NCBI GenBank assembly: GCA_046598345.1
Contig: JBKJIT010000003.1
Location: 156,549-220,548 of the forward strand
Length of the DNA stretch: 64,000 nt
From: Minisyncoccia bacterium
Lineage (GTDB): Bacteria > Patescibacteriota > Minisyncoccia > Phycocordibacterales > UBA918
Direction: 5' to 3'
A program made the position numbers and the translations under genes. The notes beneath the pieces were generated by a model. That model saw nothing but the letters and a program-made list of their open reading frames with translations. It did no database searches and was not told where the DNA came from. This document shows, in pieces, positions 35,458 through 59,845 of the stretch (the stretch's first letter is position 1; every line of letters begins with the position of its first letter).

Positions 35458-35493
35458 ACCTAAAAACCACAGTCTAAGGACTGTGGTTTTTAG
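35458..35493 (+). terminator. terminator hairpin cctaaaaaccacagtc-ctta-gactgtggtttttagg
   Basis: perfect 16-bp stem; followed by hairpin gaacacaaactgctttgtgttc (35500-35521). Confidence 0.6.
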
Positions 35494-35654
35494 GTTTAGA
35501 ACACAAACTGCTTTGTGTTCGTATCTAACTGTGAGCTAGAGTCATGTTTTTGCTACACAAAATGCAAAATAGACGAGGCCGGGTCGAGAGTGCTTAAGAG
35601 CAAAGCGAATTAGCAACTCCTGACCAGTACCCAGCGAAAGGGATTTGAAAAGAC

Positions 35655-35730
35655 TGGAGCCGTCTCCGAGGATCGAACTCGGGACCTTTGCGTTACGAAT
35701 GCAATGCTCTACCAACTGAGCTAAGACGGC
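35655..35730 (-). tRNA. tRNA-Thr(CGU) with encoded CCA
   Basis: reverse complement GCCGTCTTAGCTCAGTTGGTAGAGCATTGCATTCGTAACGCAAAGGTCCCGAGTTCGATCCTCGGAGACGGCTCCA; loop TTCGTAA; A31xC39 mismatch; a family-B repeat piece lies downstream at about 35570-35625. Confidence 0.8.
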
Positions 35731-44372: not shown

Positions 44373-44486
44373 AGTATAGCAGTGTCGGTGAACGATATTT
44401 TTTCTAAAAATCTCTCCGTCAACCAGATTTCATCATAATCTTCGTACCGAAGCTATCTGGGACTGTGTTGGACTTTTGTGTTTAAA

Positions 44487-45065: not shown

Positions 45066-45136
45066 CCTTTCAAAGTGGTTTAACTTCTAAGAACAGACTA
45101 TCCCATAAGAAGGAAATGTAAAGTATATGTTGGCTG

Positions 45137-45157
45137 TTTGGGAAGAAGTTGGAACTG
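45137..45157 (-). repeat. copy of the AAGTTCCAAC..TCCCAAAC intergenic motif (minus orientation)
   Basis: gtttgggaagaagttggaact is the reverse complement of AGTTCCAACTTCTTCCCAAAC; a second minus-oriented copy lies at 46187-46207. Confidence 0.5.
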
Positions 45158-45218
45158 ATCTTGCTGTTCCCTAAGACTGTCTTACGCCGATCAGTTAATC
45201 TGTTTGCTTTTTACAAAC

Positions 45219-45527
45219 CTATTTTTTCTCTACAACTTCCTTGAGCTTACGTAGTCGCTTGTCCCACTGGTTTTCTATATGAGTGATGAACTCACTGCAT
45301 CGCTTCAAGGACTTCATATCAAGGGACACTCGCACTTCTCGCCCCTCTGGCTTTAGGTGTAAAACACTCGCAGACACCAATACCTGAACCTGCTTCCTTG
45401 CACCTTGTCTTGAGATAGCAAGATTGTTGGTCAAGTCTCCCATCGTGTAGGTAGCTCCAAGAGAAAGTCGTCGCACTATCTCGAGACGTATTGGATCTCC
45501 CAGTGCTTTAAATATTTGCGCCTCCAT
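45219..45527 (-). CDS. ArsR/SmtB-family transcriptional regulator
   Basis: IFKALGDPIRLEIVRRL helix-turn-helix signature; start at the internal ATG 45527. Confidence 0.75.
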   Translation of the reverse strand: MEAQIFKALGDPIRLEIVRRLSLGATYTMGDLTNNLAISRQGARKQVQVLVSASVLHLKPEGREVRVSLDMKSLKRCSEFITHIENQWDKRLRKLKEVVEKK

Positions 45528-45529
45528 AA

Positions 45530-45970
45530 CTAGTTCTCTGTACAGAATTTTACAAGTCGTCCCAGCATATAATCCCACCCTCCTGAATTCTGCTTGAATG
45601 ATTTTTCTGCAATGTCTTCAGGTAATGATGCGAAACCGGATTCCGTCACTATGACTGTACACGCACCATTCTTTTCCTCAATACGAAACTCCACCAGGGT
45701 GTTCGGCACTTTGGACACATCTCCAAGAAAAGTACTTCCTCCAGGAATCCAACGGTATGAGAAATACTCGTAGGGCCGTGCGTCAACAATTAATACCTTG
45801 GTTTTACTATCGTGCTCACTGAAGACAAAGACAGGTTGTTCACCAGCTGCGTAGGTTCCTTCTATGGCATTCGGGAACCACAATACCACTTGCTCGGGAT
45901 TTGCGATGGCCTCGTACACTGCCTCTTTAGAGGCCTCAATAACTATTTCACGCTGTATCGTGTCTTGCAT
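45530..45970 (-). CDS. SRPBCC / AHSA1-like protein
   Basis: about 147 aa starting MQDTIQREIVIEASKEAVYEAI, the typical AHSA1/polyketide-cyclase-like N-terminus; partnered with ArsR. Confidence 0.6.
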   Translation of the reverse strand: MQDTIQREIVIEASKEAVYEAIANPEQVVLWFPNAIEGTYAAGEQPVFVFSEHDSKTKVLIVDARPYEYFSYRWIPGGSTFLGDVSKVPNTLVEFRIEEKNGACTVIVTESGFASLPEDIAEKSFKQNSGGWDYMLGRLVKFCTEN

Positions 45971-46329
45971 ACTTTCACTAATTAATTCGTAACATTTATA
46001 TGCAAGGAGTGTAGCAAAGTACATACAAATATGCAACCTATAGGTTGCATATGATCCTTCCTCTAGGAGATCGTACGCTTTACAAGTCCGTTTTTCCTTT
46101 CAGAGACTCGATTTCTTTTTTTAAGCTCTACCATCCTTAGTTCTTGGTCAATCACAAATGTATTCAGACGCTCCAATTGGCTCGTTGTTTGGGAAGCAGT
46201 TGGAACTTTTGAGTAACTAATTCTCCAAATGTACTGGATCATCCTTTTGACATGAGGAGATAGAATCATAAAAATGTCGTGGATGGGAAGATCGAAATAT
46301 GGTAAGGTAACATCGCTTTTCAAAAGCAC

Positions 46330-46549
46330 CATTGCCAGTTCGTCTAATGGTGGCCAGAAATTAATGAGCGCTGCGATTATAATTTCTGAGTCCGTCTGAT
46401 TTTCTTCCTCACAGAAGAAAATCAGACGTTTGGGAGGTCCTGAGTATTGGGGCTGAAATGATATGGGGTATTATTTCAGGACGTTGCCAGATATTTATAA
46501 AAAATATCGACAACGTGTACTGATCATGTAATGATCGAGTCCCTTACCA
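46330..46549 (+). repeat. split pseudo-copy of tRNA-Gln: the first 21 nt (46330-46351) and a 3' piece inside family-A element L2 (46480-46549, core CGACAACGTGTACTGATCATGTAATGATCGAGTCCC)
   Basis: cattgccagttcgtctaatggt occurs at 46329 and 46560; 46480-46540 aligns with 35366-35436. Confidence 0.55.
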
Positions 46550-46562
46550 GAACAAAAAATAT

Positions 46563-46633
46563 TGCCAGTTCGTCTAATGGTAGGACACATGCCTCTGGAG
46601 CATGTTATTGGGGTTCGAGTCCCTGACTGGCAG
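46563..46633 (+). tRNA. tRNA-Gln(CUG)
   Basis: acceptor TGCCAGT/ACTGGCA (U1-A72), D-arm GTCT-AATGGTA-GGAC, anticodon stem CATGC/GCATG, loop CTCTGGA, T-arm TGGGG-TTCGAGT-CCCTG (two G.U pairs), discriminator G. Confidence 0.7.
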
Positions 46634-46647
46634 CTAATAGAAAATCG

Positions 46648-46941
46648 TCATCTTTGGGTAAATGTAAGAGTTTTAGAAATGGCATCGAATAGTTGAAGTG
46701 TTTCATTGGTCATACTTTCGTCCTTTGCCAATGCTACATAGGTTAATACAAAACCACTTTTTCCAATTACATGCACCTTGTCACAGGTGGAATTGAAGGG
46801 GTATGCTGATAGTAAGTTTTCCTTTTCTTCTGCTGTGAACCCTTTGAGTGCACAAAATTCAATAATTGGTGCTGAAATGCCCTCGACATGAGGTATCTGG
46901 TCTCTATATAAATCTTTGCCAGCAACAGTTATAGGCGTCAT
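46648..46941 (-). CDS. hypothetical protein (97 aa)
   Basis: ORF only; may be the 3' part of a frameshifted gene together with 46988..47329. Confidence 0.3.
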   Translation of the reverse strand: MTPITVAGKDLYRDQIPHVEGISAPIIEFCALKGFTAEEKENLLSAYPFNSTCDKVHVIGKSGFVLTYVALAKDESMTNETLQLFDAISKTLTFTQR

Positions 46942-46987
46942 TGTATTTATATTTACCGCTGCATTACCTCCAACGACATTATGGTCG

Positions 46988-47329
46988 CTAAAGTATTTGT
47001 AATACCCACTCTTCAGAATCCCTTGTTAATTCAATTCTAGTCTCAACAGAATTTGATTCACCGTACATGTTTTTTGTGTGGTTAATTTTATTTTGCTTGA
47101 ACTGTAGTTCCGGGGGGTATTTAAATTCAAAACCATACTCCTCGTTCGAATAAGTCTTCCAGTTTGATGTAGCGGTAGTATGAGTGAGATCACTTTCAAT
47201 AAGTTTCTCGTCGCTGTTATTCGTATTTGTGTTTGCGCGGAAATACAAATAACTGCCACCTAACAATAGGACTGTCAAAACTATTAAAAACAATTTTTTA
47301 TTATTCATCTTATTGAAACAATGCATCAT
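46988..47329 (-). CDS. hypothetical secreted protein (113 aa)
   Basis: signal-peptide-like N-terminus MMHCFNKMNNKKLFLIVLTVLLLGGSYLYF. Confidence 0.4.
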   Translation of the reverse strand: MMHCFNKMNNKKLFLIVLTVLLLGGSYLYFRANTNTNNSDEKLIESDLTHTTATSNWKTYSNEEYGFEFKYPPELQFKQNKINHTKNMYGESNSVETRIELTRDSEEWVLQIL

Positions 47330-47420
47330 GATTTTTCACCTGTCAATTAATGTAGCATTGCAGCCTTCAATAGACAGTATCCACCTCCCATGCAGCAATC
47401 TAGACATTTTAAAAAATGAT

Positions 47421-47477
47421 GTTGCCACAGGGTAACCCTGTGGAGGACATGTTGTCACAAGGTAACCTTGTGGAGGA
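47421..47477. repeat. two tandem REP-like palindromic units GTTG(C/T)CACA(G/A)GGTAACC(C/T)TGTGGAGGA centred on GGTAACC, preceded by tagacattttaaaaaatgatg
   Basis: the same units occur at 48938-48964, 56133-56159, 56166-56190 and 58118-58140. Confidence 0.7.
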
Positions 47478-47518
47478 TATATATCAAATTCGAACCCAAG
47501 TTTTGGTAAACTTATATT

Positions 47519-48097
47519 ATGGAATCAATACCGTCTCATGAAGAAGTGAAGGTTGTAATTGAACGTGCACGTCCGGAGGATGCAGAAGAAATCCAAACTG
47601 TTTTCTATAAAACCTGGCTCGCAACATATCCTAATGAGGTGTCAGGTGTAACTGTGGATGACGTACATGAATATTACAGGGACAAATTAACTCCAGAAGG
47701 AATCAAAAAATCCCAAAGAAAGATTGAAGAGGATAGTCGAATGGAAAACCTAAGAGTTTTTGTTGCAAAAATCAATGAAAAAGTTGCAGGTGTCTGTATA
47801 GCAAGAATTCTTGAGGACAAGAATCAGTTGAAAGCAATATACGTCTTACCTGAATTTCAAGGAAAGGGAATTGGTTCCAAATTATGGAATCAGGTACTTA
47901 CGTTCATTGATCAGACAAAAGACACGACAGTTGAAGTTGTGACCTATAACAGTAATGCAATCGAGTTTTATAAACGACTAGGTTTTGAAGATACTGGTAG
48001 GAGGTGGACTGATGAAAAATTTCGAATGAAAAGTGGTGCAACGTTTCCAGAAATGGAGATGAAAATTAATGGTTTAGGGTCACTAGAAAAGTTCTAA
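47519..48097 (+). CDS. GNAT-family N-acetyltransferase
   Basis: acetyl-CoA binding motif QLKAIYVLPEFQGKGIGSKLW. Confidence 0.8.
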   Translation: MESIPSHEEVKVVIERARPEDAEEIQTVFYKTWLATYPNEVSGVTVDDVHEYYRDKLTPEGIKKSQRKIEEDSRMENLRVFVAKINEKVAGVCIARILEDKNQLKAIYVLPEFQGKGIGSKLWNQVLTFIDQTKDTTVEVVTYNSNAIEFYKRLGFEDTGRRWTDEKFRMKSGATFPEMEMKINGLGSLEKF

Positions 48098-48284
48098 CAT
48101 TACACCCCAGGGTGCCTTCTTTACCTCGCATGTTCAGTTCAGGTTGTCGCTTTTTCATAAAAACGCTGGCAACCTCCTGAATACATATCCCATATGCATT
48201 CAGCTTCGTCCCATACAGCCAGCTCACTAAGTTGTGGTCGCGGGACACTTGCATAATTGTTATGGTAAAATTTAAATATTCAAA

Positions 48285-48860
48285 ATGAATAAAAAATTCT
48301 TATACGCTATTTTTGTTGTTCTACTCCTCGCAGGTGCACTTCTCTTCCGTGAATATGGTACTGGTGACAAAGCAGTAGTAATTCAGAATGATTATAAAAA
48401 TACTGATTACGTTATTGAAGGGAGGCACATCAAACTTCTTAACGGTGTGTCAGAAGTAGAATCTGCACCTGGTTCTGCATCCAAAACCATAACTCGATAT
48501 TTTGGTAATGAACTAAAAACTGACCTTAACAATGATGGTCGCGACGACGTGGTGTTCCTACTCACACAGGAAACAGGGGGAACCGGCACATTTTTCTATG
48601 CTGTCGCTGCTCTTAATACTGAAGATGGATATCTTGGTTCCGATGGTTTTTTGCTTGGAGATAGGGTTGCTCCGCAATCGACTGAATTGAGTAGAAACGG
48701 AAGACATAAAAATGTTGTCGTCATAAACTATGCAGACCGCGCACAAAACGATTCTATGGATGTTACGCCGTCACTCAACAAGAGTGTTTATTTGAAACTT
48801 GATCCAGTAAGCAAACAGTGGGGTGTTGTAGAAGCAAATTTTGAAGGTGAATCGAGATAG
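48285..48860 (+). CDS. hypothetical membrane-anchored or secreted protein
   Basis: N-terminal TM segment FLYAIFVVLLLAGALLF; no motif recognised. Confidence 0.5.
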   Translation: MNKKFLYAIFVVLLLAGALLFREYGTGDKAVVIQNDYKNTDYVIEGRHIKLLNGVSEVESAPGSASKTITRYFGNELKTDLNNDGRDDVVFLLTQETGGTGTFFYAVAALNTEDGYLGSDGFLLGDRVAPQSTELSRNGRHKNVVVINYADRAQNDSMDVTPSLNKSVYLKLDPVSKQWGVVEANFEGESR

Positions 48861-48913
48861 TGAGGCATCAACGCACTCTCAACTTGGTGCTTGAGTATCT
48901 TGCTGTGATAAAA

Positions 48914-48964
48914 AAGTTCGAACATGTCCTAAACAGCGTTGCCACAGGGTAACCTAGTGGAGGA
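48914..48964 (+). repeat. composite intergenic repeat: AAGTTCGAACATGTCCTAAACAGC followed by one GGTAACC palindromic unit
   Basis: matches 56084-56159 and 57353-57370. Confidence 0.65.
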
Positions 48965-49095
48965 ACTGCACTAACAAATCTTAGATAAAGCAAAAAATAT
49001 TAAATCCGACGACAGAAATTGTCTAGGAAGCCCTATAGCAATGCTATAATTGCATCAGTGCAGTTTCCAGAATAAAATCTGAACTATTACCTAGT

Positions 49096-49133
49096 ATGTA
49101 AAGTCGACTTGACATGTGTGTAGCTCGTGCATT
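49096..49133 (+). promoter_or_regulatory. sigma70-like promoter candidate: TTGACA -35 element (49106-49111) with an A/T-rich downstream region; no convincing -10 hexamer identified
   Basis: TTGACA hexamer plus AT-rich sequence about 50 nt upstream of the XRE gene. Confidence 0.4.
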
Positions 49134-49158
49134 ATAGTGTATATAAATCAGAAATGAT

Positions 49159-49371
49159 ATGGGAGAATATATTTCAAACACTGTGTATACCTTACGTACC
49201 AAAAAAAATCTCACTCAAGAAGAGTTTGCTCAAAAACTTGGTATTACAAGACAAACCGTTATTTCAATCGAAAAGGGAAATTACACCCCTTCAGTATTAT
49301 TGGCCCTTAAAATCGCGTCTGTTTTTAAAGTACGAGTCGAAGATATTTTTACTATTACCTATGACAAATAA
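49159..49371 (+). CDS. XRE-family helix-turn-helix transcriptional regulator
   Basis: KKNLTQEEFAQKLGITRQTVISIEKGNYTPSVLLALKIASVF, the classic HTH_3 motif. Confidence 0.8.
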   Translation: MGEYISNTVYTLRTKKNLTQEEFAQKLGITRQTVISIEKGNYTPSVLLALKIASVFKVRVEDIFTITYDK

Positions 49372-49726
49372 TAAAATTATTCACATTAGTATTGCAGTAC
49401 TTCTTGTCGTGTTCCTCACACTATTATCTGATCCGTTTATGTACTGGATGCCAATGGGTTTACAAATGGTGGCACTGCTTGGAGCGGCCGTACTTGGAGC
49501 GGTTTGGTCTGGATTTGTGATGTATGAACGTGCACCTGATGAACGTGAAGCGATTCATCGAATGCATGCAGGGCGTATGGCCTACCTTTCAGGAATTATG
49601 ATACTTACTATTGCGTTGGTGACACAAGGACTAGCTCATGATATCGACCCGTGGATTTCTGTTGCATTGGGTACTATGGTACTCGTGAAGCTTTTTTCTC
49701 GGTTCTATTCCGAGCGATATAAGTGA
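49361..49726 (+). CDS. small membrane protein co-encoded with the XRE regulator
   Basis: internal ATG overlapping the XRE stop; three predicted TM helices. Confidence 0.5.
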   Translation: MTNNKIIHISIAVLLVVFLTLLSDPFMYWMPMGLQMVALLGAAVLGAVWSGFVMYERAPDEREAIHRMHAGRMAYLSGIMILTIALVTQGLAHDIDPWISVALGTMVLVKLFSRFYSERYK

Positions 49727-49784
49727 GGTATCAACAGTGCATATGTAAAGTATGCTTTACACATGATGTATACTGTCAGGACAC

Positions 49785-51092
49785 ATGAATACAAAAATAA
49801 TACTAGCTTTTTTAGGTACTGTAGCTCTCGTCGTGGGAGTGTTATTTTTTATTAACGCACAAAATCCAAGCGAAGAAGCTTTGTCTCTATCTAATCTTCA
49901 AAATCAAGGCGAGGTTACCGAGCCGGTTACACTTTCAGATGATAATCCTACTCCGGGGGAGTCTGCATCTGAAATTCAAGTGACAGATGAACAGACACAC
50001 AGAGAAGAAAATGCTGTGCCAGTAGCCTCAAAACAAATGGTACAGTCTTCAACGAAACTCGCACTTTTTGCCAATGGTTGTTTCTGGTGTGTGGAAGCTG
50101 ACTTAGAAAAAGTAGCTGGAGTGAAAAGCGTCATCTCGGGATATGCTGGTGGGACCACAATAAGTCCAACGTATGAGAACGCTACTGTCGGAGGGCACAG
50201 AGAGGTTGTGTTAGTAACATATGATCCCACTATCGTTAGTTACGCTAACCTTGTTGAACACATCATTAAACACGGTGATCCGACTGATGCCTCTGGATCA
50301 TTTAATGACAGAGGTCCGCAATATGCGCCGGCGATCTACTATGAGAATGACGGAGAGAAAGATGAAGCGCTTCGAGTAATTGCAGCAATCGATGCAATGA
50401 AGGTATTTTCAAATCCCTTGCCACTTCTTGTTACACCAACAGTAAAATTCTGGCCCGCAGAAGAGTATCATCAAGATTTTGCAAAGAAAAACTCACTAAA
50501 ATATGGTTATTACCGAACGGGGTCAGGAAGGAGTGCGTTTATCGAAAAAACGTGGGGCGATAGAGCGTCACGATTTGAAGTTCCTGCGCAATCACTAAAT
50601 ACAGCGCAGGAGATGAATAAAGAGATAGCATCATTCAACACTATGTCATGGAAATCATTTATAAAACCATCAGAAGACACGTTAAGGGATGTACTCACTC
50701 CTTTGCAGTATGAGGTAACACAGGAAGAAGGAACAGAATCGCCCTTCAAAAATGAATACGACAAAAACTGGAAGGAGGGTATATACGTTGATATTGTTTC
50801 CGGAGAGCCTTTGTACCTTTCAAAGGATAAGTATGATTCTGGAACTGGCTGGCCGTCATTTGTGAAGCCAATTTCAATTGATGTCGTCACATTAAAAGTG
50901 GACAAGGGATTATTCAGTACACGTACAGAAGTACGTTCGCGCTATGCCGACTCGCACATTGGTCATGTTTTTGACGACGGACCTACCGATCGTGGCGGTA
51001 AACGGTACTGTATGAATTCTGCGGCGTTGCGTTTCGTTGCTAAGGCAGAAATGGAAAAAGAGGGGTATGGGTACCTACTCACACAAATGTAA
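49785..51092 (+). CDS. msrAB: bifunctional peptide methionine sulfoxide reductase MsrA/MsrB, membrane-anchored (extracytoplasmic type)
   Basis: N-terminal TM segment; GCFWCVE (MsrA active site) and GWPSF...HIGHVF...RYCMNSAAL (MsrB). Confidence 0.85.
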
Positions 51093-51094
51093 CT

Positions 51095-51760
51095 ATGCAA
51101 AGGAAGTACATCGTTCTTGTTCTTGGTTGTATAGCATTTGCTGGAATGCTTTTTGTACTCCACCAGTCAGGTGTACTTTCTGAATTCCAAGGTGAGGAGC
51201 TTAAACGCACCATTCTTGGGTTCGGAGTATTGGCTCCGATCGTGTACATGTCGTTGTATGCTCTCGCGTCAGTATTGTTTATTCCTGGAAGTCCTCTAAC
51301 TCTTGCGGGAGGGGCACTTTTTGGTCCGTTATATGGAACAATATATACCATAGTGGGGGCAACCATTGGCGCACTTCTGGCGTTCACTTTATCGCGAACA
51401 CTTGGTCGAAAGTTTATCTCATTCGGAAATGGAAGTGTGTCACAAAAACTCCAGACATACGACGTAAAAATTGCTCAGCATGGATTTCTGATGGTATTGT
51501 TTCTACGATTTGTACCGCTATTTCCATTTAATGGACTCAACTTTGCACTTGGATTAACAAAAGTGTCATATAGGGATTACTTCCTCGGAACCTTTTTGGG
51601 CATTATTCCAGGTACATTTGCATACGTCTATTTTGGAGACTCACTCGCAACACTCAGTCCATTAAGAATTGTTAGCGCAGTGGCTCTTGTTGTTGCCCTG
51701 ACTCTCTTGGGAAGATATGTTCTGAAACGCTATCAGAGTAACAATGCACAGTTGCTATGA
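51095..51760 (+). CDS. DedA / TVP38-TMEM64 family membrane protein
   Basis: FIPGSPLTLAGGALFGPLYGTIYTIVGATIGALLAF signature. Confidence 0.75.
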   Translation: MQRKYIVLVLGCIAFAGMLFVLHQSGVLSEFQGEELKRTILGFGVLAPIVYMSLYALASVLFIPGSPLTLAGGALFGPLYGTIYTIVGATIGALLAFTLSRTLGRKFISFGNGSVSQKLQTYDVKIAQHGFLMVLFLRFVPLFPFNGLNFALGLTKVSYRDYFLGTFLGIIPGTFAYVYFGDSLATLSPLRIVSAVALVVALTLLGRYVLKRYQSNNAQLL

Positions 51761-53184
51761 AAAAAGAAAATATATTCGACATCATTGTTATTGGGGCGGG
51801 ATCAGGTGGTTTGAACATCGCGTCATTTATTAATCGTGTTGGGCTCAAAGTGCTTTTGATAGACAAAAGTAATGCACATATCGGAGGCGATTGTCTTAAT
51901 TTTGGATGTGTTCCTTCTAAGGCCTTAATTCATGTTGCACGAACAGTGCGCGAGGCACAACGTGCCACTCGCTTCGGCCTCACTGTTAGTGGTGAGGTAG
52001 ATTGGCAAAAAGTTCGTTCCTATATACAACAAAAACAAGACATCATTCGTACACATGAAAACGCTGACTGGTTTCGGTCAAAAGGAATGTCAGTTGTACT
52101 AGGGAAGGCTTCTTTTGTCTCAAAAAATACAGTCGCAGTTAATGAGGTTGCCTATCAAGGGAAAAAGATTGTGCTTGCGACAGGTTCACGTCCGAGAGTG
52201 TTGGAAGGAAAAGGTATAGAGCAAGTAACAAGAGTTCTGAACAATGAAAATGTATTTACTATGGAGACATTGCCACAGAGCCTGTTAGTGCTTGGTGGGG
52301 GTCCAATCGGTATTGAAATTGCACAGGCACTCTCCTATCTAGGCTCAAAAGTGACTGTTGTTGATCCTGGCACTCAGATTCTTAGTAAGGAAGATAGAGA
52401 CATTGCTGATGTACTCCAAGGACAGATGAAGAACGAGGGAGTACAATTTCTTTTAGAACACACATTAAAAGAATTTACCTCTCCTACAGAAGCGGTTTTC
52501 ATGACGAACGATGGTATTGAAGTCAGGGTTACGTTTGACGCAGTCTTCATTGGGATTGGTCGCGTTTTAAATATTGAGGGGTTGGAATTAGAGAAAGCTG
52601 GCATCGAAATAGATGAAAAAGGGAAACTTGTTGTTGATGCATATTTGAGTACCACTAATAAAAACGTCTTCGCATGTGGTGATGTTGCTGGAAACTATCA
52701 GTTTACGCATGCTGCAGAAATGCACGCAAGCGTTATTTTAAAAAACTTCTTTTCACCGTTTAAGAAAAAATTTAATGGGGACTCAATTTCCTGGACTACG
52801 TACACGACTCCTGAAATAGCGACATTTGGTGTGCAAGAAACAGAACTCAAAAAAAGAAATATTGCCTATATTGTACTTGTATCAGATTTTAACGAAGATG
52901 ATAGGGCTATTACGGATGAATACCAGTATGGAAAAGCAAAACTTTTTATTACCGAGAAAGGAAAAGTTTTGGGTGGAACCTTGGTTGCACCACATGCCGG
53001 TGAACTCATCCAAGAACTTGTACTTGCACAAACAAACGGGCTTTCAGTTCGCTCTTTGTTCAATAAAACATATGCGTATCCAACTGCTTCTCGTATTAAT
53101 AAACGTCTCGTCTCGAGCTATTTTGCGTCTAAACTTACTGCAACGACGAACACCCTACTGCGTTTTTTGTACAGACTATTTTAA
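51757..53184 (+). CDS. class I pyridine nucleotide-disulfide oxidoreductase (Lpd/MerA-like FAD protein)
   Basis: DIIVIGAGSGGLNIA FAD-binding fold and the redox-active disulfide motif GGDCLNFGCVPSK. Confidence 0.8.
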   Translation: MKKENIFDIIVIGAGSGGLNIASFINRVGLKVLLIDKSNAHIGGDCLNFGCVPSKALIHVARTVREAQRATRFGLTVSGEVDWQKVRSYIQQKQDIIRTHENADWFRSKGMSVVLGKASFVSKNTVAVNEVAYQGKKIVLATGSRPRVLEGKGIEQVTRVLNNENVFTMETLPQSLLVLGGGPIGIEIAQALSYLGSKVTVVDPGTQILSKEDRDIADVLQGQMKNEGVQFLLEHTLKEFTSPTEAVFMTNDGIEVRVTFDAVFIGIGRVLNIEGLELEKAGIEIDEKGKLVVDAYLSTTNKNVFACGDVAGNYQFTHAAEMHASVILKNFFSPFKKKFNGDSISWTTYTTPEIATFGVQETELKKRNIAYIVLVSDFNEDDRAITDEYQYGKAKLFITEKGKVLGGTLVAPHAGELIQELVLAQTNGLSVRSLFNKTYAYPTASRINKRLVSSYFASKLTATTNTLLRFLYRLF

Positions 53185-53285
53185 GGTGAGTACGGCTGGC
53201 TATCCACATAGATAATGTAAAGTATACTTTACATTTAGATATTGAATCTATATACTTATCTCTATTAATACGCAATCATAAAAAT

Positions 53286-53930
53286 ATGAATAAAAATATA
53301 GGAATTGTTGTTGGGGCGATAGCACTCGTTGTCATTGTTGGAGGAGTCTTCGCTTCAATCAGCGACACAGATAATGCCGCGATGATGGAGAAGCAAAAGA
53401 TGGAGCAGGTGGCGATGGAGAAAGAAAAAATGGAAAAGGAAGCAATGCTGAAAGAGCAGATGATGAAAGATGAAGCAATGGAGAAGGATGCATTGACAAA
53501 AGCAGAGGACTCAATGATGAAAGAGGATGACGCAACTATGATGGAAAAAGACGAGGGGGCGATGATGGACACGTCGACAGACGGTACTTTGATGAAAGAC
53601 GAGCAAGTCATGATGAAAGCGGGTTCATATGAGTCGTATGCATCTACAAAGGTTGCGATGGCTTCCGTAAGCCACGACGTCGTACTCTTTTTCCGTGCGA
53701 GCTGGTGCCCGACCTGTAGGGCAGTAGATGCAGACATCAAGGCCCATCTAAAAGATATTCCTGGGACTCTCTCTATCCTCGACGTAGACTACGACAATTC
53801 AACTGATCTCAAGAAAAAGTATGGGGTTACCTATCAGCACACATTTGTGCAAGTCGATGCACAAGGAAATCTCATCAAAAAGTGGAGTGGCAGTCCGACG
53901 CTCTCAGCACTTGTTGCGGAAGTAAAATAA
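53286..53930 (+). CDS. membrane-anchored thioredoxin-like protein with a Met/Lys/Glu-rich linker
   Basis: TM anchor, about 90 aa containing more than 20 Met (AMMEKQKMEQVAMEKEKMEKEAMLKEQMMKDEAMEKD...), then a thioredoxin fold with WCPTC. Confidence 0.7.
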   Translation: MNKNIGIVVGAIALVVIVGGVFASISDTDNAAMMEKQKMEQVAMEKEKMEKEAMLKEQMMKDEAMEKDALTKAEDSMMKEDDATMMEKDEGAMMDTSTDGTLMKDEQVMMKAGSYESYASTKVAMASVSHDVVLFFRASWCPTCRAVDADIKAHLKDIPGTLSILDVDYDNSTDLKKKYGVTYQHTFVQVDAQGNLIKKWSGSPTLSALVAEVK

Positions 53931-53934
53931 CACA

Positions 53935-55314
53935 ATGGTACTCCTACTCGTATCATTCATAGCTGGAGTACTGACGGTACTTGCGCCCTGCGTACTCCCG
54001 CTTCTTCCAGTGATTGTGGGTGGAAGTATTGGTGGTGGCAAGAGCTGGAAGCGTGCAATAACCGTTACCGCGTCACTTGCGGTTTCGGTTATTGTGTTTA
54101 CACTTCTCATAAAAGCGAGTACGCTTTTTATCGACATACCGCAGGATTTCTGGAAGTGGTTTTCCGGTAGTATTATCATCGTTTTCGGGCTCGTTACTGT
54201 TTTCCCGAACCTGTGGGAGAAATTGCCCTTTCTCTCAAAACTAAGCATTGGAAGCAATAAGTTGCTTTCCACTGGTTACCAAAAACAAAACTTCGTAGGC
54301 GATGCTATTGTCGGCGCGTCGCTCGGTCCAGTGTTCTCGACGTGTAGCCCGACGTATTTTCTTGTATTAGCTGCAGTACTTCCTGAAAATCTTGGTTTGG
54401 GCATACTGTACCTCATTGCTTATTCTTTCGGACTCTCACTCTCGCTCCTACTCGTTGCTTTTGTTGGACAGAAGATTATAGACAGGGCAGGAGTTGTTGC
54501 AAACTCGCATGGCTGGTTTAAGAAAACTCTTGGAGTACTGTTTCTGATTGTAGGCATCGCGATAATTTTCGGAGTGGACAAATCACTCCAAGTAAAAGTA
54601 CTCGATGCAGGATTTTTTGACGTAACAAAGATTGAGCAAAAATTGCTTGAATTAGTCCCTCGAGGTAAAGGGGAAGACGTCTCGGTTATACGTGAAAAAG
54701 AGGGAGTGGCACCAGTACCAGTGATTGTTGCTGAAGCAAAACCTGTTGTAGAGAAAGAAATGCCTGTGACTGTATCCGATATAGAGAATAACACTGTAGT
54801 ACAATCAGTTATTTCTCCTGCACCTGTTCGTGATGTAGAAAGTTTGGACGTGCGTGCTCCAGAAATAGTAAATCCTAGTGGGTTTATCAATACGGATGGA
54901 AAGCCAATTACTTTCGGAGAATTTAAAGGAAAGAAAGTGGTTCTGGTAAGTTTCTGGACATACAGCTGTATAAACTGCCAACGCACATTGCCATACCTAA
55001 ACTCATGGTATGAAAAGTATAAGGATCAAGGATTGGAAATAGTGAGTATCCACACACCAGAGTTTGCGTACGAGCAGGTCTTAAAAAATGTTGAAAAAGA
55101 GGTACTCAACACATACGACATCAAATATCCCGTGGTTCTCGACAACGACTATAGTACGTGGAAAGCGTTTGGAAATCGTTATTGGCCGAGGAAGTATCTC
55201 GTTGATATTGATGGGTATATCGTATATGACCATATTGGTGAAGGGGCGTATGATGAGACAGAAGAAGAGATACAGGAAGCACTCAAAAAACGCGCAGAAC
55301 GATTAGGTCAATAA
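53935..55314 (+). CDS. CcdA/DsbD-type membrane thiol-disulfide transporter fused to a thioredoxin-like (TlpA/ResA-like) domain
   Basis: LAPCVLPLLP two-Cys TM motif in a six-TM domain; C-terminal WTYSCINCQ thioredoxin CxxC. Confidence 0.8.
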   Translation: MVLLLVSFIAGVLTVLAPCVLPLLPVIVGGSIGGGKSWKRAITVTASLAVSVIVFTLLIKASTLFIDIPQDFWKWFSGSIIIVFGLVTVFPNLWEKLPFLSKLSIGSNKLLSTGYQKQNFVGDAIVGASLGPVFSTCSPTYFLVLAAVLPENLGLGILYLIAYSFGLSLSLLLVAFVGQKIIDRAGVVANSHGWFKKTLGVLFLIVGIAIIFGVDKSLQVKVLDAGFFDVTKIEQKLLELVPRGKGEDVSVIREKEGVAPVPVIVAEAKPVVEKEMPVTVSDIENNTVVQSVISPAPVRDVESLDVRAPEIVNPSGFINTDGKPITFGEFKGKKVVLVSFWTYSCINCQRTLPYLNSWYEKYKDQGLEIVSIHTPEFAYEQVLKNVEKEVLNTYDIKYPVVLDNDYSTWKAFGNRYWPRKYLVDIDGYIVYDHIGEGAYDETEEEIQEALKKRAERLGQ

Positions 55315-55339
55315 TGAGGGTCGTGTGACTGTGTGAAAT

Positions 55340-55915
55340 ATGTATAAAAAAATTATTTTCGGAGTTGTAGCCATTGTTTTTGTAAGTGTTGTGTATTACG
55401 GTATTTCGCCACTATTCAGAAACACTCGCATTGACGAAGTTGCACCAGTCTCGAAAGAGTCGCCGTTTGCAACTTCTTCAGGCGCAATAGTGGAGACCGA
55501 AGATTCTATGTCAGAGGAAAAATCATCACCAAGCGGGATGAAAAAACCAGTTGATGATACCTTAACTCAACCACGACCCAAAGAGGAGTTACCACTGACG
55601 GTAGTCTCATCACCTATTATTGGTACCACGGGGCATCCTGCAAGCGGAACTGCTCGAATCATCAATACGGAAGGTGGTGCTGTGATTCGCTATGAGAATT
55701 TTAAGACACTTAATGGTCCAGATTTGTTTGTCTATCTGGCAAAAGACCTCGACGCAGAAAGTTTTATAAATCTCGGTGAATTAAAAGCGACTGAAGGTAA
55801 TGTGAATTACGCTGTGCCCACAAATGTAGATGTGAATGAATACAAATACGTCATGGTGTGGTGCAGGCAGTTTGGCGTACTCTTTAATTATGCGGACCTG
55901 TCTTTGATTCGCTAG
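55340..55915 (+). CDS. DM13-domain protein (putative electron-transfer domain), membrane-anchored
   Basis: IRYENFKTLNGPDLFVYLAKD resembles the DM13 signature. Confidence 0.55.
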   Translation: MYKKIIFGVVAIVFVSVVYYGISPLFRNTRIDEVAPVSKESPFATSSGAIVETEDSMSEEKSSPSGMKKPVDDTLTQPRPKEELPLTVVSSPIIGTTGHPASGTARIINTEGGAVIRYENFKTLNGPDLFVYLAKDLDAESFINLGELKATEGNVNYAVPTNVDVNEYKYVMVWCRQFGVLFNYADLSLIR

Positions 55916-56083
55916 TGTATACAGCACAATCTAGAATCTTCAAATGAGACGTAGACCGAGACGGGTGTTTTCTGTCACATTTGTATCAGGTCAAAACAGA
56001 TACATTGACGGAAAAACTGAGTTGATTAACAAAGTGCTTGATGAATCTGGATTTGTGAGGTGGAAAGCCAATCTTCCTTAAAG

Positions 56084-56190
56084 AAGTTCGTACATCGTCC
56101 CAAACGGCAATTTAGACATTTAAAAAAATGATGTTGTCACAGGGTAACCTTGTGGAGGAAATGATGTTGTCACAGGCTAACCCTATGGAG
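56084..56190 (+). repeat. composite intergenic repeat: AAGTTCGTACATCGTCCCAAACGGC plus tagacatttaaaaaaatgatg plus two GGTAACC-type palindromic units
   Basis: about 80 nt nearly identical to 47401-47477. Confidence 0.7.
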
Positions 56191-56215
56191 TTATTGGTAG
56201 GTGTATAATTTCGTG

Positions 56216-56749
56216 ATGAAAAATGACAAATACTCTTATAAGGATAGAAAGTACGGAATTGTTTCTTATGACCCAAATTGGGTCCATGCATTTGAAAGCC
56301 TTAGAAAGAAAATCCAACTAATATTTGGTGACGTTTCGATAGAGCATATCGGTAGTACAGCAGTTCCAAACATGTCAGGAAAACCCTGCATTGATGTGCT
56401 AGTTATGATTGATAATTTAGATTCTATAGAACATCATATCGATGAAATGCGTGAAAAGGGATTTGAATATGTGGGAGAACTTGTGGTGGAAGACTCACGC
56501 CTTTTTAGAGTGATGGAAGAGAACATATCACTGGCCAATATTCACTTTTTTCCTAAAGATCATCCACACAATAGCGAGATGCTTGCCATGAGAGATTACC
56601 TTCGAAGTCATCCTGAAGAAGTTGAGGCCTATTCTCAACTAAAAGAGAATTTGTATGCAAAGTACTCTGATGAATATGCTTTGTATAGGAAAGAGAAAGA
56701 TGAATATATGAATGAACTAATGAAGCGAATACGCGATGTCACAATCTAA
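56216..56749 (+). CDS. GrpB-family (nucleotidyltransferase-like) protein
   Basis: YDPNWVHAFESLRKKI...IEHIGSTAVPNMSGKPCIDVLV pattern; a TATAAT hexamer lies just upstream; the track's start is a GTG at 56201. Confidence 0.65.
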   Translation: MKNDKYSYKDRKYGIVSYDPNWVHAFESLRKKIQLIFGDVSIEHIGSTAVPNMSGKPCIDVLVMIDNLDSIEHHIDEMREKGFEYVGELVVEDSRLFRVMEENISLANIHFFPKDHPHNSEMLAMRDYLRSHPEEVEAYSQLKENLYAKYSDEYALYRKEKDEYMNELMKRIRDVTI

Positions 56750-56751
56750 AA

Positions 56752-56769
56752 ATGTTCTTACATCGTCCA
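56752..56769 (+). repeat. AATGTTCTTACATCGTCC motif copy 2 nt after the GrpB stop
   Basis: matches the AAGTTCCAACATCGTCCC family. Confidence 0.6.
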
Positions 56770-56805
56770 TACAGCTCAGCTAAAGAATTTTGCTATAATG
56801 CAAAA

Positions 56806-57351
56806 ATGAAAAAGATTAAAAGTATTTCGTATGATGAAGTTGTCACATTCTTTGAAAAGGAACACCCTGTGGATGAAACATCACCTAACTTTGCTGGGAA
56901 TAAATGGGCAATGAAACACTTGGAGTGGGCAAATGACGTTTCTAAAGGAGAATGGACGTTATGCGAATTAGAACCTGAGGATATACTCGGGATTGTCTTT
57001 TCTCATCATACGTCAGAAGAAACAGAACACAGTTTAATTAATGTGCAGGGCATGACACTCAACCAAACGCTCACCTTAATGAAAGAAAATAATGTTGAAT
57101 ATGCAAAAAACAATCCAGTTTGTTGGTCAAAAATCATGTATTGGCAAAATAAAGATTTTTCGCCGGTACTTTTAAGTACTCGCCCTACTCCAGGAAAAGG
57201 TAAAAGGAGCGATGTGGATATAAATTTAGGAAATCTATTTCATCAAGACGGTTTGCATAGATTAATAAGATGGGGTCTTGATGGAAGGTTTGAACTAAAT
57301 AAGTATTCTCAAGGACCCAAATTAACAGCTTTTGTTTCTGGTCGAATTTAA
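56806..57351 (+). CDS. hypothetical protein (182 aa)
   Basis: start at the ATG following tgctataatgcaaaa; the track's extension from 56752 translates the repeat motif. Confidence 0.45.
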   Translation: MKKIKSISYDEVVTFFEKEHPVDETSPNFAGNKWAMKHLEWANDVSKGEWTLCELEPEDILGIVFSHHTSEETEHSLINVQGMTLNQTLTLMKENNVEYAKNNPVCWSKIMYWQNKDFSPVLLSTRPTPGKGKRSDVDINLGNLFHQDGLHRLIRWGLDGRFELNKYSQGPKLTAFVSGRI

Positions 57352-57352
57352 A

Positions 57353-57370
57353 AAGTTCCAACATCGTCCC
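57353..57370 (+). repeat. AAGTTCCAACATCGTCCC motif copy immediately after a stop codon
   Basis: read directly from sequence. Confidence 0.6.
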
Positions 57371-57706
57371 AGACAGCGGAGCTTACTAACTAAGTGAACC
57401 TTACATTTGGGTGCCCATTCTTAATTACCGGCGCAAGAAGGAGAGCTAATGACAGTTCTTCATAACTAACTCATTATGTATTTGTTACGTTTTTAATACA
57501 TATGCAAACTATTTAGCATATGAGAACCAACATAAATGGAATACATACAATTCCTTACTATCAAAAGACTGCATCTATAAATATTAATTTTTAAGAGTTA
57601 CATGACTTAAAATATTTTTGTGTTTGGTACCTATCAGGTAATGCTGATACAACCATGTACTCAATCAAGCGATTTTAGAACACAATTATAAAAATTAAAT
57701 AGAATT

Positions 57707-57964
57707 ATGAATATGGATAACCCAAATATGAACGACGCAGGTCACGATCGAAAGGAGTGGTGGGATGCAAAAAAAGCTGAGCATGAGGCACGATTAGAAA
57801 AAATGGATGCAGAAAAACGATTGGAAGCCAATGATGCGTTCAAAAACTTCAGTGAAGAATTTGACGCTGCAACTGATTGGACTGATGCTAGTTGGGATCA
57901 ATTTAAAGCAAAGGTTAGTAAGACATGGAATGCAGGAGAGGTAGAAGTAGATAACAAAATCTAA
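57707..57964 (+). CDS. small acidic hypothetical protein (85 aa)
   Basis: ORF after about 330 nt of AT-rich non-coding DNA; followed by a strong terminator. Confidence 0.35.
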   Translation: MNMDNPNMNDAGHDRKEWWDAKKAEHEARLEKMDAEKRLEANDAFKNFSEEFDAATDWTDASWDQFKAKVSKTWNAGEVEVDNKI

Positions 57965-57993
57965 TACCATTAGATTGTACTGATCAAGAAATC

Positions 57994-58032
57994 AAACAAC
58001 CGCCCTCTCTCACATGAGAGAGGGCGGTTGTT
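57994..58032 (+). terminator. terminator aaacaaccgccctctctc-acatg-agagagggcggttgttt
   Basis: 17-bp perfect stem. Confidence 0.7.
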
Positions 58033-58073
58033 TAGTCAGGAAGCAAAAGAATGGACTTCGGAGCAACAAAAAC

Positions 58074-58140
58074 CAATTCCAACTTCGTCCCTCATATTAA
58101 GCTCACATATACTGTTTCTCCACAGGGTTACTTTGTGGAG
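58074..58140 (+). repeat. composite repeat: AATTCCAACTTCGTCCC motif plus one palindromic unit ctccacagggttactttgtggag
   Basis: matches 59047-59064 and the GGTAACC-type units. Confidence 0.6.
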
Positions 58141-58184
58141 TTACTGATAAGTACCCACATTTTGACTGAGTACAATTAAATGCT

Positions 58185-59048
58185 ATGCTCGCGGGAATGA
58201 AAAAATGTCTTCTCGGAGCCCTGGTATTTGCCGTTGCTTTTAGCTATGGAGCAGTTTACCTACTCGAAGCAGAAGAGGTGAGGACTCTTGAGGACTTGTA
58301 CGAGCTTGCTCGCACTCACCCCGATGTCGCTCTGGATAAGATTCCATATATAATAAATGCGAATCCAGAGTTAATGAACCGCTGTCACGAAATTACGCAC
58401 AATATTGGACATATTGCGTACTCAGCTTTTCAAGAGCGTGCGTTTGATTTTGTTAGGCCTATGTGTGGAGCGGGATATCTACACGGAGCTTTAGAGGAGG
58501 CTGTAACATTGGACAGTGTAACTTCACTTGTGGGCGAAGTTCATAAGGTGTGTAAAGAAAATCAAATTGAAGCCTGTCTCCATGGGTTAGGGCATGCCAT
58601 ATTCAATGTAACCCAAAATACAAGCTCAGCTATAGATTTATGTAAAGGAATCACAAGCGAGCATACAGATTGCTATGATGGGGTATTTATGGAACAGTTC
58701 GACTCTGAAAGCTCTCCTATAAAGATTTCTTATAGTGATGGAATGAGTGTATGTCTGAATATGGATCATGACATCCAGGCAAGCTGTTTCTTTTATCTAC
58801 CTAGAACATTGAAGGATCAAGCTGCTAGTGAAGTTGCAATACAGTGTAATGAGCTTGAAACGCCATCTAATTTTATTTGTGCTCAGGGTAGCGGGGTCAT
58901 GTTTATGAAGTATGAACGAACATTTGACACTAACAATGCTCGTAGTATGTGTGACGCTTATGTAGACGCGAAGTTAAAGCAGCCATGCTTAGTTGGAGTA
59001 GAAAGCTACAGTCAATTTGGTTCTTTAGAGAATTCCCGCTGGCAGTAA
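58185..59048 (+). CDS. secreted Cys/His-rich hypothetical protein with an HExxH motif
   Basis: signal peptide; CHEITHNIGH and CLHGLGHAIF; 14 Cys. Confidence 0.45.
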   Translation: MLAGMKKCLLGALVFAVAFSYGAVYLLEAEEVRTLEDLYELARTHPDVALDKIPYIINANPELMNRCHEITHNIGHIAYSAFQERAFDFVRPMCGAGYLHGALEEAVTLDSVTSLVGEVHKVCKENQIEACLHGLGHAIFNVTQNTSSAIDLCKGITSEHTDCYDGVFMEQFDSESSPIKISYSDGMSVCLNMDHDIQASCFFYLPRTLKDQAASEVAIQCNELETPSNFICAQGSGVMFMKYERTFDTNNARSMCDAYVDAKLKQPCLVGVESYSQFGSLENSRWQ

Positions 59049-59064
59049 GTTCCAACTTCGTCCC
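59047..59064 (+). repeat. AAGTTCCAACTTCGTCCC motif copy overlapping the stop codon
   Basis: read directly from sequence. Confidence 0.6.
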
Positions 59065-59104
59065 TCATATAAAGCTCACGTATACTTTTGGTATACTCAT
59101 GTAA

Positions 59105-59845
59105 ATGGGAAACTTTGAAATGAAGAAACTACTTTTTTACCTGGCCCTCGGTATATTTTTTCTCCTTGTACTCGACACGACTCGGACTTACTTACTTTTT
59201 AGAAAGAGTAAAAGTTTAGTAGAGAAATCCATTCCTTTTGAACGTATAAACGAAAAAGCCGAACAGAAGATCCTGGTTCTTGGAGACAGTACGGCAGTGG
59301 GGACGGGGGTAGAGGAGCCCTCTCTTAGTACTGCCGGTCGTTTGAGTGCCCTCTATCCCGATGCAGAGGTACGGAATCTGGCACAAAATGGAATGCGTGT
59401 GAAAGGCTTAGTTTCAGTTATAGAAGAATTGAAACCGGAAGACCAGTTTTCACTCATACTGGTACAAATAGGGGCGAATGACATTATTCGACTTACCTCA
59501 TTAAAAGACATTGAGAGCGATGCTGAGAAAATTCTTAGTCAGCTCAGAGAACATTCAAGCACTGTACTGATTTTACATTCTGGAAATGTAGGAGAAGCAC
59601 TCTTCTTTCCTCGATATTTTCGTCCACTGTTATCACGACGAAGTCTAGAAGTGCGCGAAATATATCAAAAATTGAGCAATACCCACGGAGCTACCTATGT
59701 AGATTTGATAGATTCAGAGATTGGGACATTACTTACAGAGCATCCCTCAAAATACTATGCAGCGGATTACCTACATCTCAGTGATGAGGGATACGGTCTG
59801 TGGTTTTCTGAAATCCAAAAAAGTTTAACGAACAAACCAATCTAG
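59105..59845 (+). CDS. SGNH/GDSL-family hydrolase
   Basis: ILVLGDSTAVGTGV block I (GDS), ...GANDI block III, DYLHLSDEGY block V (D..H). Confidence 0.75.
   Translation: MGNFEMKKLLFYLALGIFFLLVLDTTRTYLLFRKSKSLVEKSIPFERINEKAEQKILVLGDSTAVGTGVEEPSLSTAGRLSALYPDAEVRNLAQNGMRVKGLVSVIEELKPEDQFSLILVQIGANDIIRLTSLKDIESDAEKILSQLREHSSTVLILHSGNVGEALFFPRYFRPLLSRRSLEVREIYQKLSNTHGATYVDLIDSEIGTLLTEHPSKYYAADYLHLSDEGYGLWFSEIQKSLTNKPI

Follow-up and report, generated by a model that had tools for sequence, protein, structure and literature searches.

A directional repeat anchored at tRNA-Gln in Patescibacteria, and its probable origin as an attachment half-site of a large serine recombinase

What is the role of a short, directional repeat that stands at the ends of a series of small genes? 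The question is raised by a 64,000-nt stretch of DNA from a Minisyncoccia bacterium (contig JBKJIT010000003.1), hereafter the window, in whose coordinates positions are given and within which this genome was examined. The window holds about 12 copies of a motif of ~33 nt, all within 44.4-59.1 kb, on either side of a tRNA-Gln gene. Comparison with related loci suggests that the motif is probably the attP-type left half-site (att, attachment site) of a large serine recombinase (LSR) from small rolling-circle plasmids or episomes of Patescibacteria, that the 3' end of tRNA-Gln is the attB-type half, and that the cassette array is stacked downstream of it. Three features were missed in the first-pass annotation of the window, which had described a composite repeat family marking gene boundaries: the tRNA-Gln anchor, the resemblance of the 3' half of the motif to the 3' end of tRNA-Gln, and the serine recombinase implicated by related loci.

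The motif and its tRNA-Gln anchor

When up to three mismatches were allowed, the 18-mer reported in the first-pass annotation gave seven matches in the window against 0.23 expected, a number reached in none of 100 shuffles, and all of them are confined to 45.1-59.1 kb. An nhmmer profile built from 520 unique motif copies of other genomes also recovered the window copies, with E-values from 1.7e-8 (57350-57377) down to about 1, and the repeat is clearly real. Copies at 48090, 48201, ~47372 (degenerate) and 44452 (minus strand) were additional to those listed before. The tRNA-Gln gene and the motif copies are as follows.

44452-44472, minus strand: possible third inverted copy, weak, after the DUF5680 gene (E 1.4)
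45126-45161, minus strand: inverted copy downstream of the minus-strand HTH_20 (ArsR-like)/AHSA1 gene pair (E 2.3e-5)
46176-46210, minus strand: inverted copy upstream of tRNA-Gln (E 0.009)
46563-46634, plus strand: tRNA-Gln(CTG), anchor of the array (ARAGORN, Rfam), with its 3' end (GGTTCGAGTCCCTGACTGGCAGC) as the putative attB/attL-type site
47368-47399, plus strand: degenerate copy at the head of a 70-nt leader shared with 56098-56167 (repeat comparison and reading of the sequence)
48086-48111, plus strand: weak copy containing the stop codon of the GNAT gene (profile match 48084-48100, E 0.67)
48201-48226, plus strand: copy with a well-preserved 3' half (CTTCGTCCCATACAGCCAGC; E 5.5e-4)
48909-48937, plus strand: copy with a 1-nt deletion, adjoining a palindrome (weak profile match to the 5' half, 48909-48925)
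56081-56110, plus strand: copy 3' of a 45-codon open reading frame (ORF), followed by the shared leader and two palindromes (E 0.004)
56748-56776, plus strand: degenerate copy 3' of the GrpB stop codon (weak profile match 56748-56768)
57350-57377, plus strand: best copy, AAAAAGTTCCAACATCGTCCCAGACAGC, immediately 3' of the DUF6309 stop codon (E 1.7e-8)
58074-58091, plus strand: copy with a profile match at 58077-58091 (E 0.05)
59045-59064, plus strand: copy with its 3' half replaced by TCATATAAAGCTCAC, overlapping the TAA stop of the HExxH gene (E 7e-4)

The copies at 58074 and 59047 have a 40-nt stretch in common (93% identical), and the overlap of stop codon and motif at 59045-59064 is arranged in the same way at a homologue in a related locus (L005:1424; related loci are cited by L number). 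The copies had been described as usually following a stop codon closely, which holds at 56084, 56752, 57353, 59047 and 48090 (the last with its stop inside the motif) but not at 45140, 48914 or 58074. The region had also been called AT-richer, and its GC content is indeed 0.36-0.43 in the array against 0.44-0.52 elsewhere in the window. A Logan contig of the same strain (11.7 kb) covers the interval from the tRNA to 58.2 kb.

The motif is far from private to this genome. A metagenome scan with GTTCYAACNTCGTCCCANAC matched at least 120 stretches, and a stricter 27-nt pattern matched at least 120 stretches of species-representative genomes. Among the matches listed, the genome records were nearly all metagenome-assembled genomes of Patescibacteria, Parcubacteria, Paceibacteria, Nomurabacteria, Kaiserbacteria or 'Saccharibacteria'. 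Overall, public scans placed the motif in more than 200 low-GC stretches. Two to nine co-oriented copies are held by 61 of the 121 metagenome stretches analysed, and all of these stretches are low in GC apart from those matching a methyltransferase gene. There are up to nine co-oriented copies per 5 kb, at a median spacing of 584 bp (quartiles 445 and 769 bp). The conserved block covers positions -6 to +28, counted from the G of GTTC, and has the consensus aAAARGTTCCAACATCGTCCCAGACnSCCAGC. Of 520 copies, 293 are preceded at no more than 45 nt, and mostly at 0-8 nt, by the end of an ORF of at least 60 codons. In the literature searched, outside subscription journals, the motif string was not found, and searches there on Patescibacteria with serine recombinases, integrons or cassettes returned nothing relevant; a joint mention with serine recombinases occurs only in a virome study.

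The related loci reveal what the arrays are attached to. In 207 low-GC loci, 46 of the 69 tRNAs are tRNA-Gln, often with DnaX encoded upstream, and of the 124 strict motif copies in tRNA-Gln loci 123 lie downstream on the tRNA strand, one lies downstream on the opposite strand and none lies upstream. Arrays beside tRNA-Pro or tRNA-Met start with a 3' fragment of tRNA-Gln. Motif orientation tracks the tRNA and not the flanking genes, and is unchanged where an enclosed gene is reversed. The window obeys this rule, with tRNA-Gln at 46563-46634 on the plus strand and about nine plus-strand copies at ~47.37-59.06 kb downstream. The 3' half of the motif itself resembles the T-stem and acceptor 3' strand of tRNA-Gln (compare GTCCCAGACTGCCAGC, a common motif variant, with GTCCCTGACTGGCAGC of the window tRNA-Gln), and the family profile also matches the 3' end of the window tRNA-Gln (46619-46639). 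Motif tails follow the acceptor type of the local tRNA-Gln (odds ratio 10.8, p 1e-5, without phylogenetic correction). Compared with the local tRNA end, the motif has an insertion of 5 nt as well as substitutions, and genuine tRNA-Gln 3' fragments occur at some joints only.

Homologous cassettes are found in different arrays with the homology stopping at the motifs, and a 3' fragment of tRNA-Gln can replace a motif, both of which fit exchange at the level of cassettes. Clustering of ORFs across loci returned mostly housekeeping neighbours (DnaX, Dus, SerRS, ABC-F) together with scattered accessory families. A stand-alone GIY-YIG protein of ~95 aa is present in 10 of the 207 array-bearing loci (e.g. 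L187 4962-5250). A further conserved box, TGGACAGAACCTAnCAT, precedes the motif by 10-14 nt in cassettes with a reversed gene (L047, L056, L059, L132, L205) and may be the promoter region of that gene. In two loci (L024 1834-1907 and L033 964-1039) the T-loop of tRNA-Gln is atypical (GGATCGTACCC), and a canonical 3' fragment of tRNA-Gln lies 16-60 nt further on, which gives the impression that the resident gene, or its tRNA end, was exchanged.

A repeat placed 0-8 nt past stop codons, often with -10-like boxes or terminator hairpins next to it, could also be a signal for gene expression, that is, a conserved promoter, terminator or RNA-processing element between co-transcribed accessory genes. 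We consider this improbable, as the orientation of the motif is set by the tRNA and kept even in reversed-gene cassettes, its spacing to -10-like boxes is variable (31 to 46 nt), it has no stable fold and no Rfam match, and it also stands at the ends of integrated elements and over the stop codon of the LSR gene in a circular element (see below). The TATAAT box said to follow the repeats is anecdotal: 31 promoter-like sites were found where 37.5 were expected, so that such sites are not enriched.

A large serine recombinase and the geometry of its presumed attachment sites

Signature scans of the related loci detected almost no tyrosine recombinases but did find a serine recombinase of ~500 aa, the LSR, with the Pfam domains Resolvase, Recombinase and Zn_ribbon_recom and, as neighbour gene, a rolling-circle replication protein (Rep) of the G2P/CRI type. 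The LSR gene lies directly after tRNA-Gln, and convergent with it, in L006, L200, L368-L371, L372-L374 and L375-L376, and its last ~20 codons are antisense to tRNA-Gln in these integrated loci. Wherever the flank suffices, one strict motif copy is present 3-7 kb beyond the LSR gene. The element is also seen free of any tRNA: L378 and L379, both with terminal overlaps, represent one ~6.5-kb element in circularly permuted form (100% identity), which encodes a helix-turn-helix (HTH) protein, Rep, LSR and a CD-NTase of the cyclic-oligonucleotide-based antiphage signalling system (CBASS), and has a single motif over the LSR stop codon. A circle with one motif and an integrated form between tRNA-Gln and one motif copy are what would be expected of an attachment site. 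A further element, L377, which is possibly circular, has a second, degenerate motif copy, so that one gene of 165 aa is enclosed between two copies. In all, an LSR gene with Resolvase, Recombinase and zinc-ribbon domains adjoins the site in L006, L200, L368, L372, L375, L377 and L378.

At E <= 1e-30 the LSR family counts more than 3,900 proteins and is thus a large one. Among the best 120 of these proteins, 40 have ..SY[HLRQ] at the C-terminus, the tRNA D-loop in antisense reading, and 27 further ones have the T-loop peptide ..DSN.., making at least 67 with tRNA-antisense ends (...DSNQD..SYH); about seven of the 120 end in ..LAVWDDVGTF, which is the motif read antisense, and L378 and L379 encode a protein of this motif type. 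Viral contigs searched with the LSR alignment returned only relatives of 26-27% identity.

Defence genes are plentiful on or beside the LSR elements. Besides the CBASS CD-NTase of L378, there is a BglII-type restriction-modification pair on L377, while in L368 (1-9000) the element itself encodes a BsaWI endonuclease and an N6/N4 methylase, and genes for ThsB-TIR, Mrr-NTPase, DpnI and a Zeta toxin follow just past the far motif.

The scan of viral contigs with the motif gave a different kind of match, limited to a coding stretch of phage C5-methyltransferases (peptide VWDDVGTF) and one other coding group. The 20-nt core of the motif is found antisense in this high-GC DNA methyltransferase ORF in L120, L074, L055, L040 and more than 100 viral contigs (L246-L365). 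About 25 high-GC single matches in the metagenomes belong to the same unrelated phage ORF and were set aside as coincidence. The peptide VWDDVGTF is the same as that of the LSR C-terminus read from the motif, and this too was treated as coincidence.

Free and integrated forms share a switch point. In both, GCTG (CAGC in reverse complement) stands at a fixed position after the conserved LSR codons ..PKN-x6-L-L, and beyond GCTG comes the motif in the free form and the tRNA in the integrated form. In integrated loci the acceptor stem is still that of the tRNA itself, with complementary strands, and this, together with the constant position of GCTG, places the point of exchange at or just after CAGC. 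The possibility that the 3' half of the motif is a displaced tRNA end (a B' arm) was rejected because the integrated tRNA retains its own acceptor stem. The inner 13 nt are similar between the motif and the 3' end of tRNA-Gln, while GGTTC and CAGC are 19 nt apart in the motif but 14 nt apart in tRNA-Gln, and MAFFT opens a gap of five columns between them. In the LI integrase system the zinc-ribbon domain has its motif at positions 16-24 of attP but at 11-19 of attB, a shift of 5 bp (Rutherford et al. 2013, PMC3783163). If the centre is set at the CA of CAGC, GGTTC falls within 16-24 in the motif and within 11-19 in the tRNA, matching those intervals, and this distal block is 5 bp closer to the centre on the attB-type side than on the attP-type side. 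Two quasi-symmetric half-sites around a central dinucleotide were not seen in these sites, the right side of attP being LSR coding sequence without evident symmetry.

These observations can be combined in a model of integration. The LSR would catalyse recombination between motif and tRNA-Gln, with strand exchange at or beside the CAGC that ends both sites. Integration would leave the tRNA intact and place the element between it and one motif copy, the products being tRNA(B)+P' and, at the opposite end, P+B'. A P+B' product would explain why every joint keeps a whole motif with nothing conserved to its right. Repeated integration at the tRNA, each time followed by loss of the LSR-Rep module, would give units stacked downstream, each ending in a motif. 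The way in which the module is lost is something we infer; one route would be excision through a second motif copy on the element, leaving the cassette behind. The small cassettes would likewise have been laid down by the LSR, and deposition of a single gene could occur, for example, by entry via one P site and exit via another, as the two-site element L377 would allow. The window would be such a stack, running from tRNA-Gln (46563-46634) through about nine co-oriented copies to 59.06 kb, with a short inverted stack to the left of the tRNA. As it holds no LSR and several of its copies have decayed, its array may be a fossil, or a substrate that needs LSR supplied in trans.

Several points weigh against this model. 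No LSR was found in the window (tblastn of the window, and Pfam scans of its ORFs at 28.7-64 kb). In the 207 array loci only three intact LSR genes and two fragments are present, so most arrays are not next to the presumed enzyme; the related-locus stretches are ~8-20 kb each, and a more distant LSR or other recombinase is possible. To the right of CAGC the array joints show no conservation (information content about 0 beyond +28), which makes them half-sites, unlike the canonical two-half substrates of LSRs. Canonical LSRs are strict in site pairing and do not recombine attL with attP, and re-use of an occupied tRNA site is an assumption of the model. No excision or integration junction was directly observed, the model being drawn from assembled forms. 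Finally, the three inverted copies to the left of the window tRNA break the orientation rule of the family, and the model does not account for the palindromes of the array.

Some of the same points would suit an island anchored at the tRNA but built by another agent, such as a distant tyrosine integrase, host Xer, or RecA-mediated exchange between the 33-nt repeats after DNA uptake, with the LSR plasmids merely sharing the hotspot. Most arrays lack a nearby LSR, their joints are only half-sites, and elements with tyrosine integrases typically accumulate in tandem at tRNA genes (PMC7192596); in addition, an Xer-like tyrosine recombinase adjoins two motif copies in L139. That locus is the only one of the 207 with a tyrosine-recombinase signature, and the combination by which tyrosine-integrase islands at tRNA genes are recognised (a tyrosine integrase with an exact direct repeat of the tRNA 3' end at the far end) was not found in these arrays. 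The motif departs from the sequence of the local tRNA end and shows no dyad around a core of 6-8 bp. The circular LSR element holds the whole motif exactly at the position occupied by the tRNA in the integrated form, and the 5-bp offset is a feature specific to LSRs. Another agent is therefore judged unlikely, and an LSR half-site remains the preferred explanation of the motif.

Cassettes and other repeats of the window array

The genes that lie between the motif copies and to the left of the tRNA are given below (Pfam matches), together with a partial duplicate of the tRNA.

44526-46036, minus strand: cassette genes for DUF5680, HTH_20 (ArsR-like) and AHSA1/SRPBCC proteins
46331-46356, plus strand: second copy of the initial ~20 nt of tRNA-Gln, placed 232 nt 5' of the gene itself (read directly)
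47519-48097, plus strand: GNAT acetyltransferase cassette gene
48285-48860, plus strand: cassette gene for a 191-aa protein without Pfam match
49159-55915, plus strand: long unit encoding an XRE HTH protein, a membrane protein, MsrA-MsrB, VTT/DedA, a pyridine-nucleotide disulfide oxidoreductase, thioredoxin, DsbD-redoxin and DM13
56201-59845, plus strand: cassette genes for GrpB, DUF6309, an 85-aa ORF with terminator, a 287-aa HExxH/Cys-rich protein and, as final unit, an SGNH hydrolase
58185-59048, plus strand: the HExxH/Cys-rich gene, between two motif copies

From GNAT to the SGNH hydrolase these form an accessory set, and the earlier description of the genes as functionally unrelated was correct. 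The profile search found no motif copy inside the redox unit at 49159-55915. Neighbouring genes also vary between loci, as would suit cassettes: in L005, a contig of the Joint Genome Institute (JGI), a motif-flanked homologue of the HExxH gene (67% identical) adjoins other genes, and a homologue of the 85-aa gene sits in the array of L172. Within the redox unit, an operator-like palindrome, TGTAAAGTAT(G/A)CTTTACA, occurs upstream of msrAB (49729-49761) and of the thioredoxin gene (53201-53233). The duplicate at 46331-46356 is a rearrangement scar; a second stretch resembling the tRNA 3' end (GATCGAGTCCCTTACCAGAAC) lies at 46534-46554, directly before the tRNA-Gln gene, and these two features are possibly connected with the inverted motif copies left of the tRNA.

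Accessory genes of unrelated function, with a directional repeat between them, do make up a cassette-like array, as the first-pass annotation had proposed, and the locus might be read as an integron-like array that has no integrase (a cluster of attC sites lacking integron-integrases, CALIN) and an unusual attC. Small, unrelated, co-oriented genes (GNAT, GrpB, hypotheticals), each stop codon being followed by a repeat, would agree with this, as would the YYYAAC core in the motif, which on direct reading is like the R'' box, and the long hairpins into which two sites of L005 fold. An attC, however, consists of imperfect inverted repeats (R''-L''...L'-R') whose hairpin measures 57-141 nt, and the motif sites of the window fold no better than shuffles. 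At 198 sites the inverted partner (the reverse complement of the first 10 nt of the motif) was no better downstream than in the upstream control, and the distance from the motif to the next ATG is often only ~50-60 nt, too short for an attC. No IntI/Phage_integrase match, and no recombinase of any kind, was found by Pfam among the ORFs scanned at 28.7-64 kb, and the head of the array is tRNA-Gln and not intI-attI. The earlier remark that the repeats do not match canonical attC is borne out by the lack of an attC hairpin, of an inverted partner and of IntI, and a CALIN is very improbable.

The second repeat of the array is a palindrome of 19 bp, GTTGYCACAGGGTAACCYTGTGGAG, with five matches against 0 expected and a variant at 58120, which makes six copies in the window:

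47421-47477, plus strand: two tandem units (GTTGYCACAGGGTAACCYTGTGGAGGA), 30 nt apart
48938-48964, plus strand: one unit
56133-56192, plus strand: two tandem units, 33 nt apart
58116-58142, plus strand: variant unit (CTCCACAGGGTTACTTTGTGGAG)

All six lie inside the array in the same orientation and in the leaders of cassettes; two of these leaders (47386-47455 and 56098-56167) share 70 nt at 87% identity. An intergenic and sometimes tandem palindrome recalls dispersed extragenic repeats of the REP/BIME type (repetitive extragenic palindromes/bacterial interspersed mosaic elements), maintained by a REP-associated tyrosine transposase (RAYT), and such punctuation had been suggested for the whole family. 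It is hardly credible here: the motif is non-palindromic and clustered in one region of the window instead of being dispersed, the six palindromes are confined to the array in one orientation with no match in the related loci (2.75 Mb) or in public genome contigs and JGI metagenomes, and no RAYT appeared in Pfam scans of the ORFs at 28.7-64 kb. The palindrome is private to this strain while the motif is phylum-wide, and the supposed composite repeat dissolves into two separate things. Our guess is that the palindrome (CCACAGGGTAACCCTGTGG) is an operator for a regulator encoded in the array, candidates being the XRE protein (49159-49371) and the HTH_20/ArsR-like protein (45219-45578).

Other repeats were seen at tRNA genes elsewhere in the window. 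A group I intron (Rfam RF00028, 35052-35261) adjoins a LAGLIDADG ORF (34353-35009) within 34196-35730, a region with repeats of a tRNA 3' end (35287-35313 identical to 35426-35452, and 34274-34300 inverted) and a tRNA-Thr at 35655-35730. Its arrangement fits the group I introns reported from tRNA genes of Patescibacteria (PMC13011429). A 27-nt inverted repeat (93% complementary) connects 35395-35421 in this intron/tRNA-fragment region with 48129-48155, in the gene-less unit between the motifs at 48090 and 48201. At 9766-10010 the 22-nt 5' end of tRNA-Ser is present three times (9766, 9872 and 9989), which suggests another tRNA-linked rearrangement or an integration scar.

Known analogues and significance

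The presumed attachment sites can be compared with those of phage serine integrases (A118/LI, Bxb1, phiC31; PMC3783163). The latter have the same Resolvase, Recombinase and zinc-ribbon domains, and their attP and attB share a common inner region, a distal block 5 bp farther out in attP, and a short shared centre. They differ in that the LSR elements of Patescibacteria (members of the candidate phyla radiation, CPR) have right half-sites without recognisable symmetry to the left, use a tRNA 3' end as attB and keep only the P half at the joints; no recombination directionality factor was identified on them.

In their working, the closest analogues may be the composite islands of the staphylococcal cassette chromosome (SCC) at rlmH/orfX, which are mobilised by the Ccr large serine recombinases. 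In SCC, as proposed for the LSR elements of Patescibacteria, an LSR integrates circles at the extreme 3' end of a conserved host gene that stays intact, units are stacked in tandem with short direct repeats between them, and many units without a recombinase are served in trans. Unlike SCC, the CPR system has a tRNA gene as target, Patescibacteria as hosts, units that are mostly single genes of ~0.3-1.5 kb, rolling-circle carriers, and as repeat a 33-nt attP-type half-site conserved across the phylum.

In architecture the closest analogue is the integron. Integron arrays and CALINs also have one entry point, co-oriented boundary sites and diverse single-gene cassettes, a minority of them with reversed genes. 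The CPR arrays are without IntI, attC hairpin and attI, a serine recombinase would act on double-stranded sites, and some cassettes at least appear to carry their own -10 boxes or terminators.

The tRNA-gene islands and tandem arrays of tyrosine integrases (Islander/TIGER, PMC7192596) similarly target the 3' end of a tRNA, regenerate the tRNA and grow by tandem accretion, but their enzymes are tyrosine integrases and the 3' end of the tRNA is duplicated exactly. Tycheposons belong with these tRNA-integrating systems. In target and carrier, the closest analogues are tRNA-integrating plasmids like pSAM2, which, like the LSR elements, are small integrative replicons with a rolling-circle Rep, but which use tyrosine integrases.

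The most far-reaching possibility, which we put forward only tentatively, is that Patescibacteria have a serine-recombinase counterpart of the integron, in which tRNA-Gln is the fixed capture site and LSR plasmids with two P sites deposit single-gene cassettes, often of defence or stress genes, that are exchangeable throughout the phylum. Since the 33-nt site is conserved phylum-wide, cassettes could under such a scheme be picked up and exchanged across the phylum. The short att sites, the switch point mapped to 4 nt, and the circular and integrated forms in hand make the proposal directly testable. The LSRs would, moreover, form a very large group of serine integrases with a tRNA gene as their target, a choice that a 2020 survey called previously unreported and rare (14 of 297; PMC7192596), and the family may interest those prospecting for serine integrases for genome engineering. 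CPR genomes are tiny and their gain of genes is little understood. The present finding suggests that tRNA-Gln is a fixed hotspot for accessory and defence genes throughout the phylum, and it supplies a candidate enzyme and carrier plasmids.

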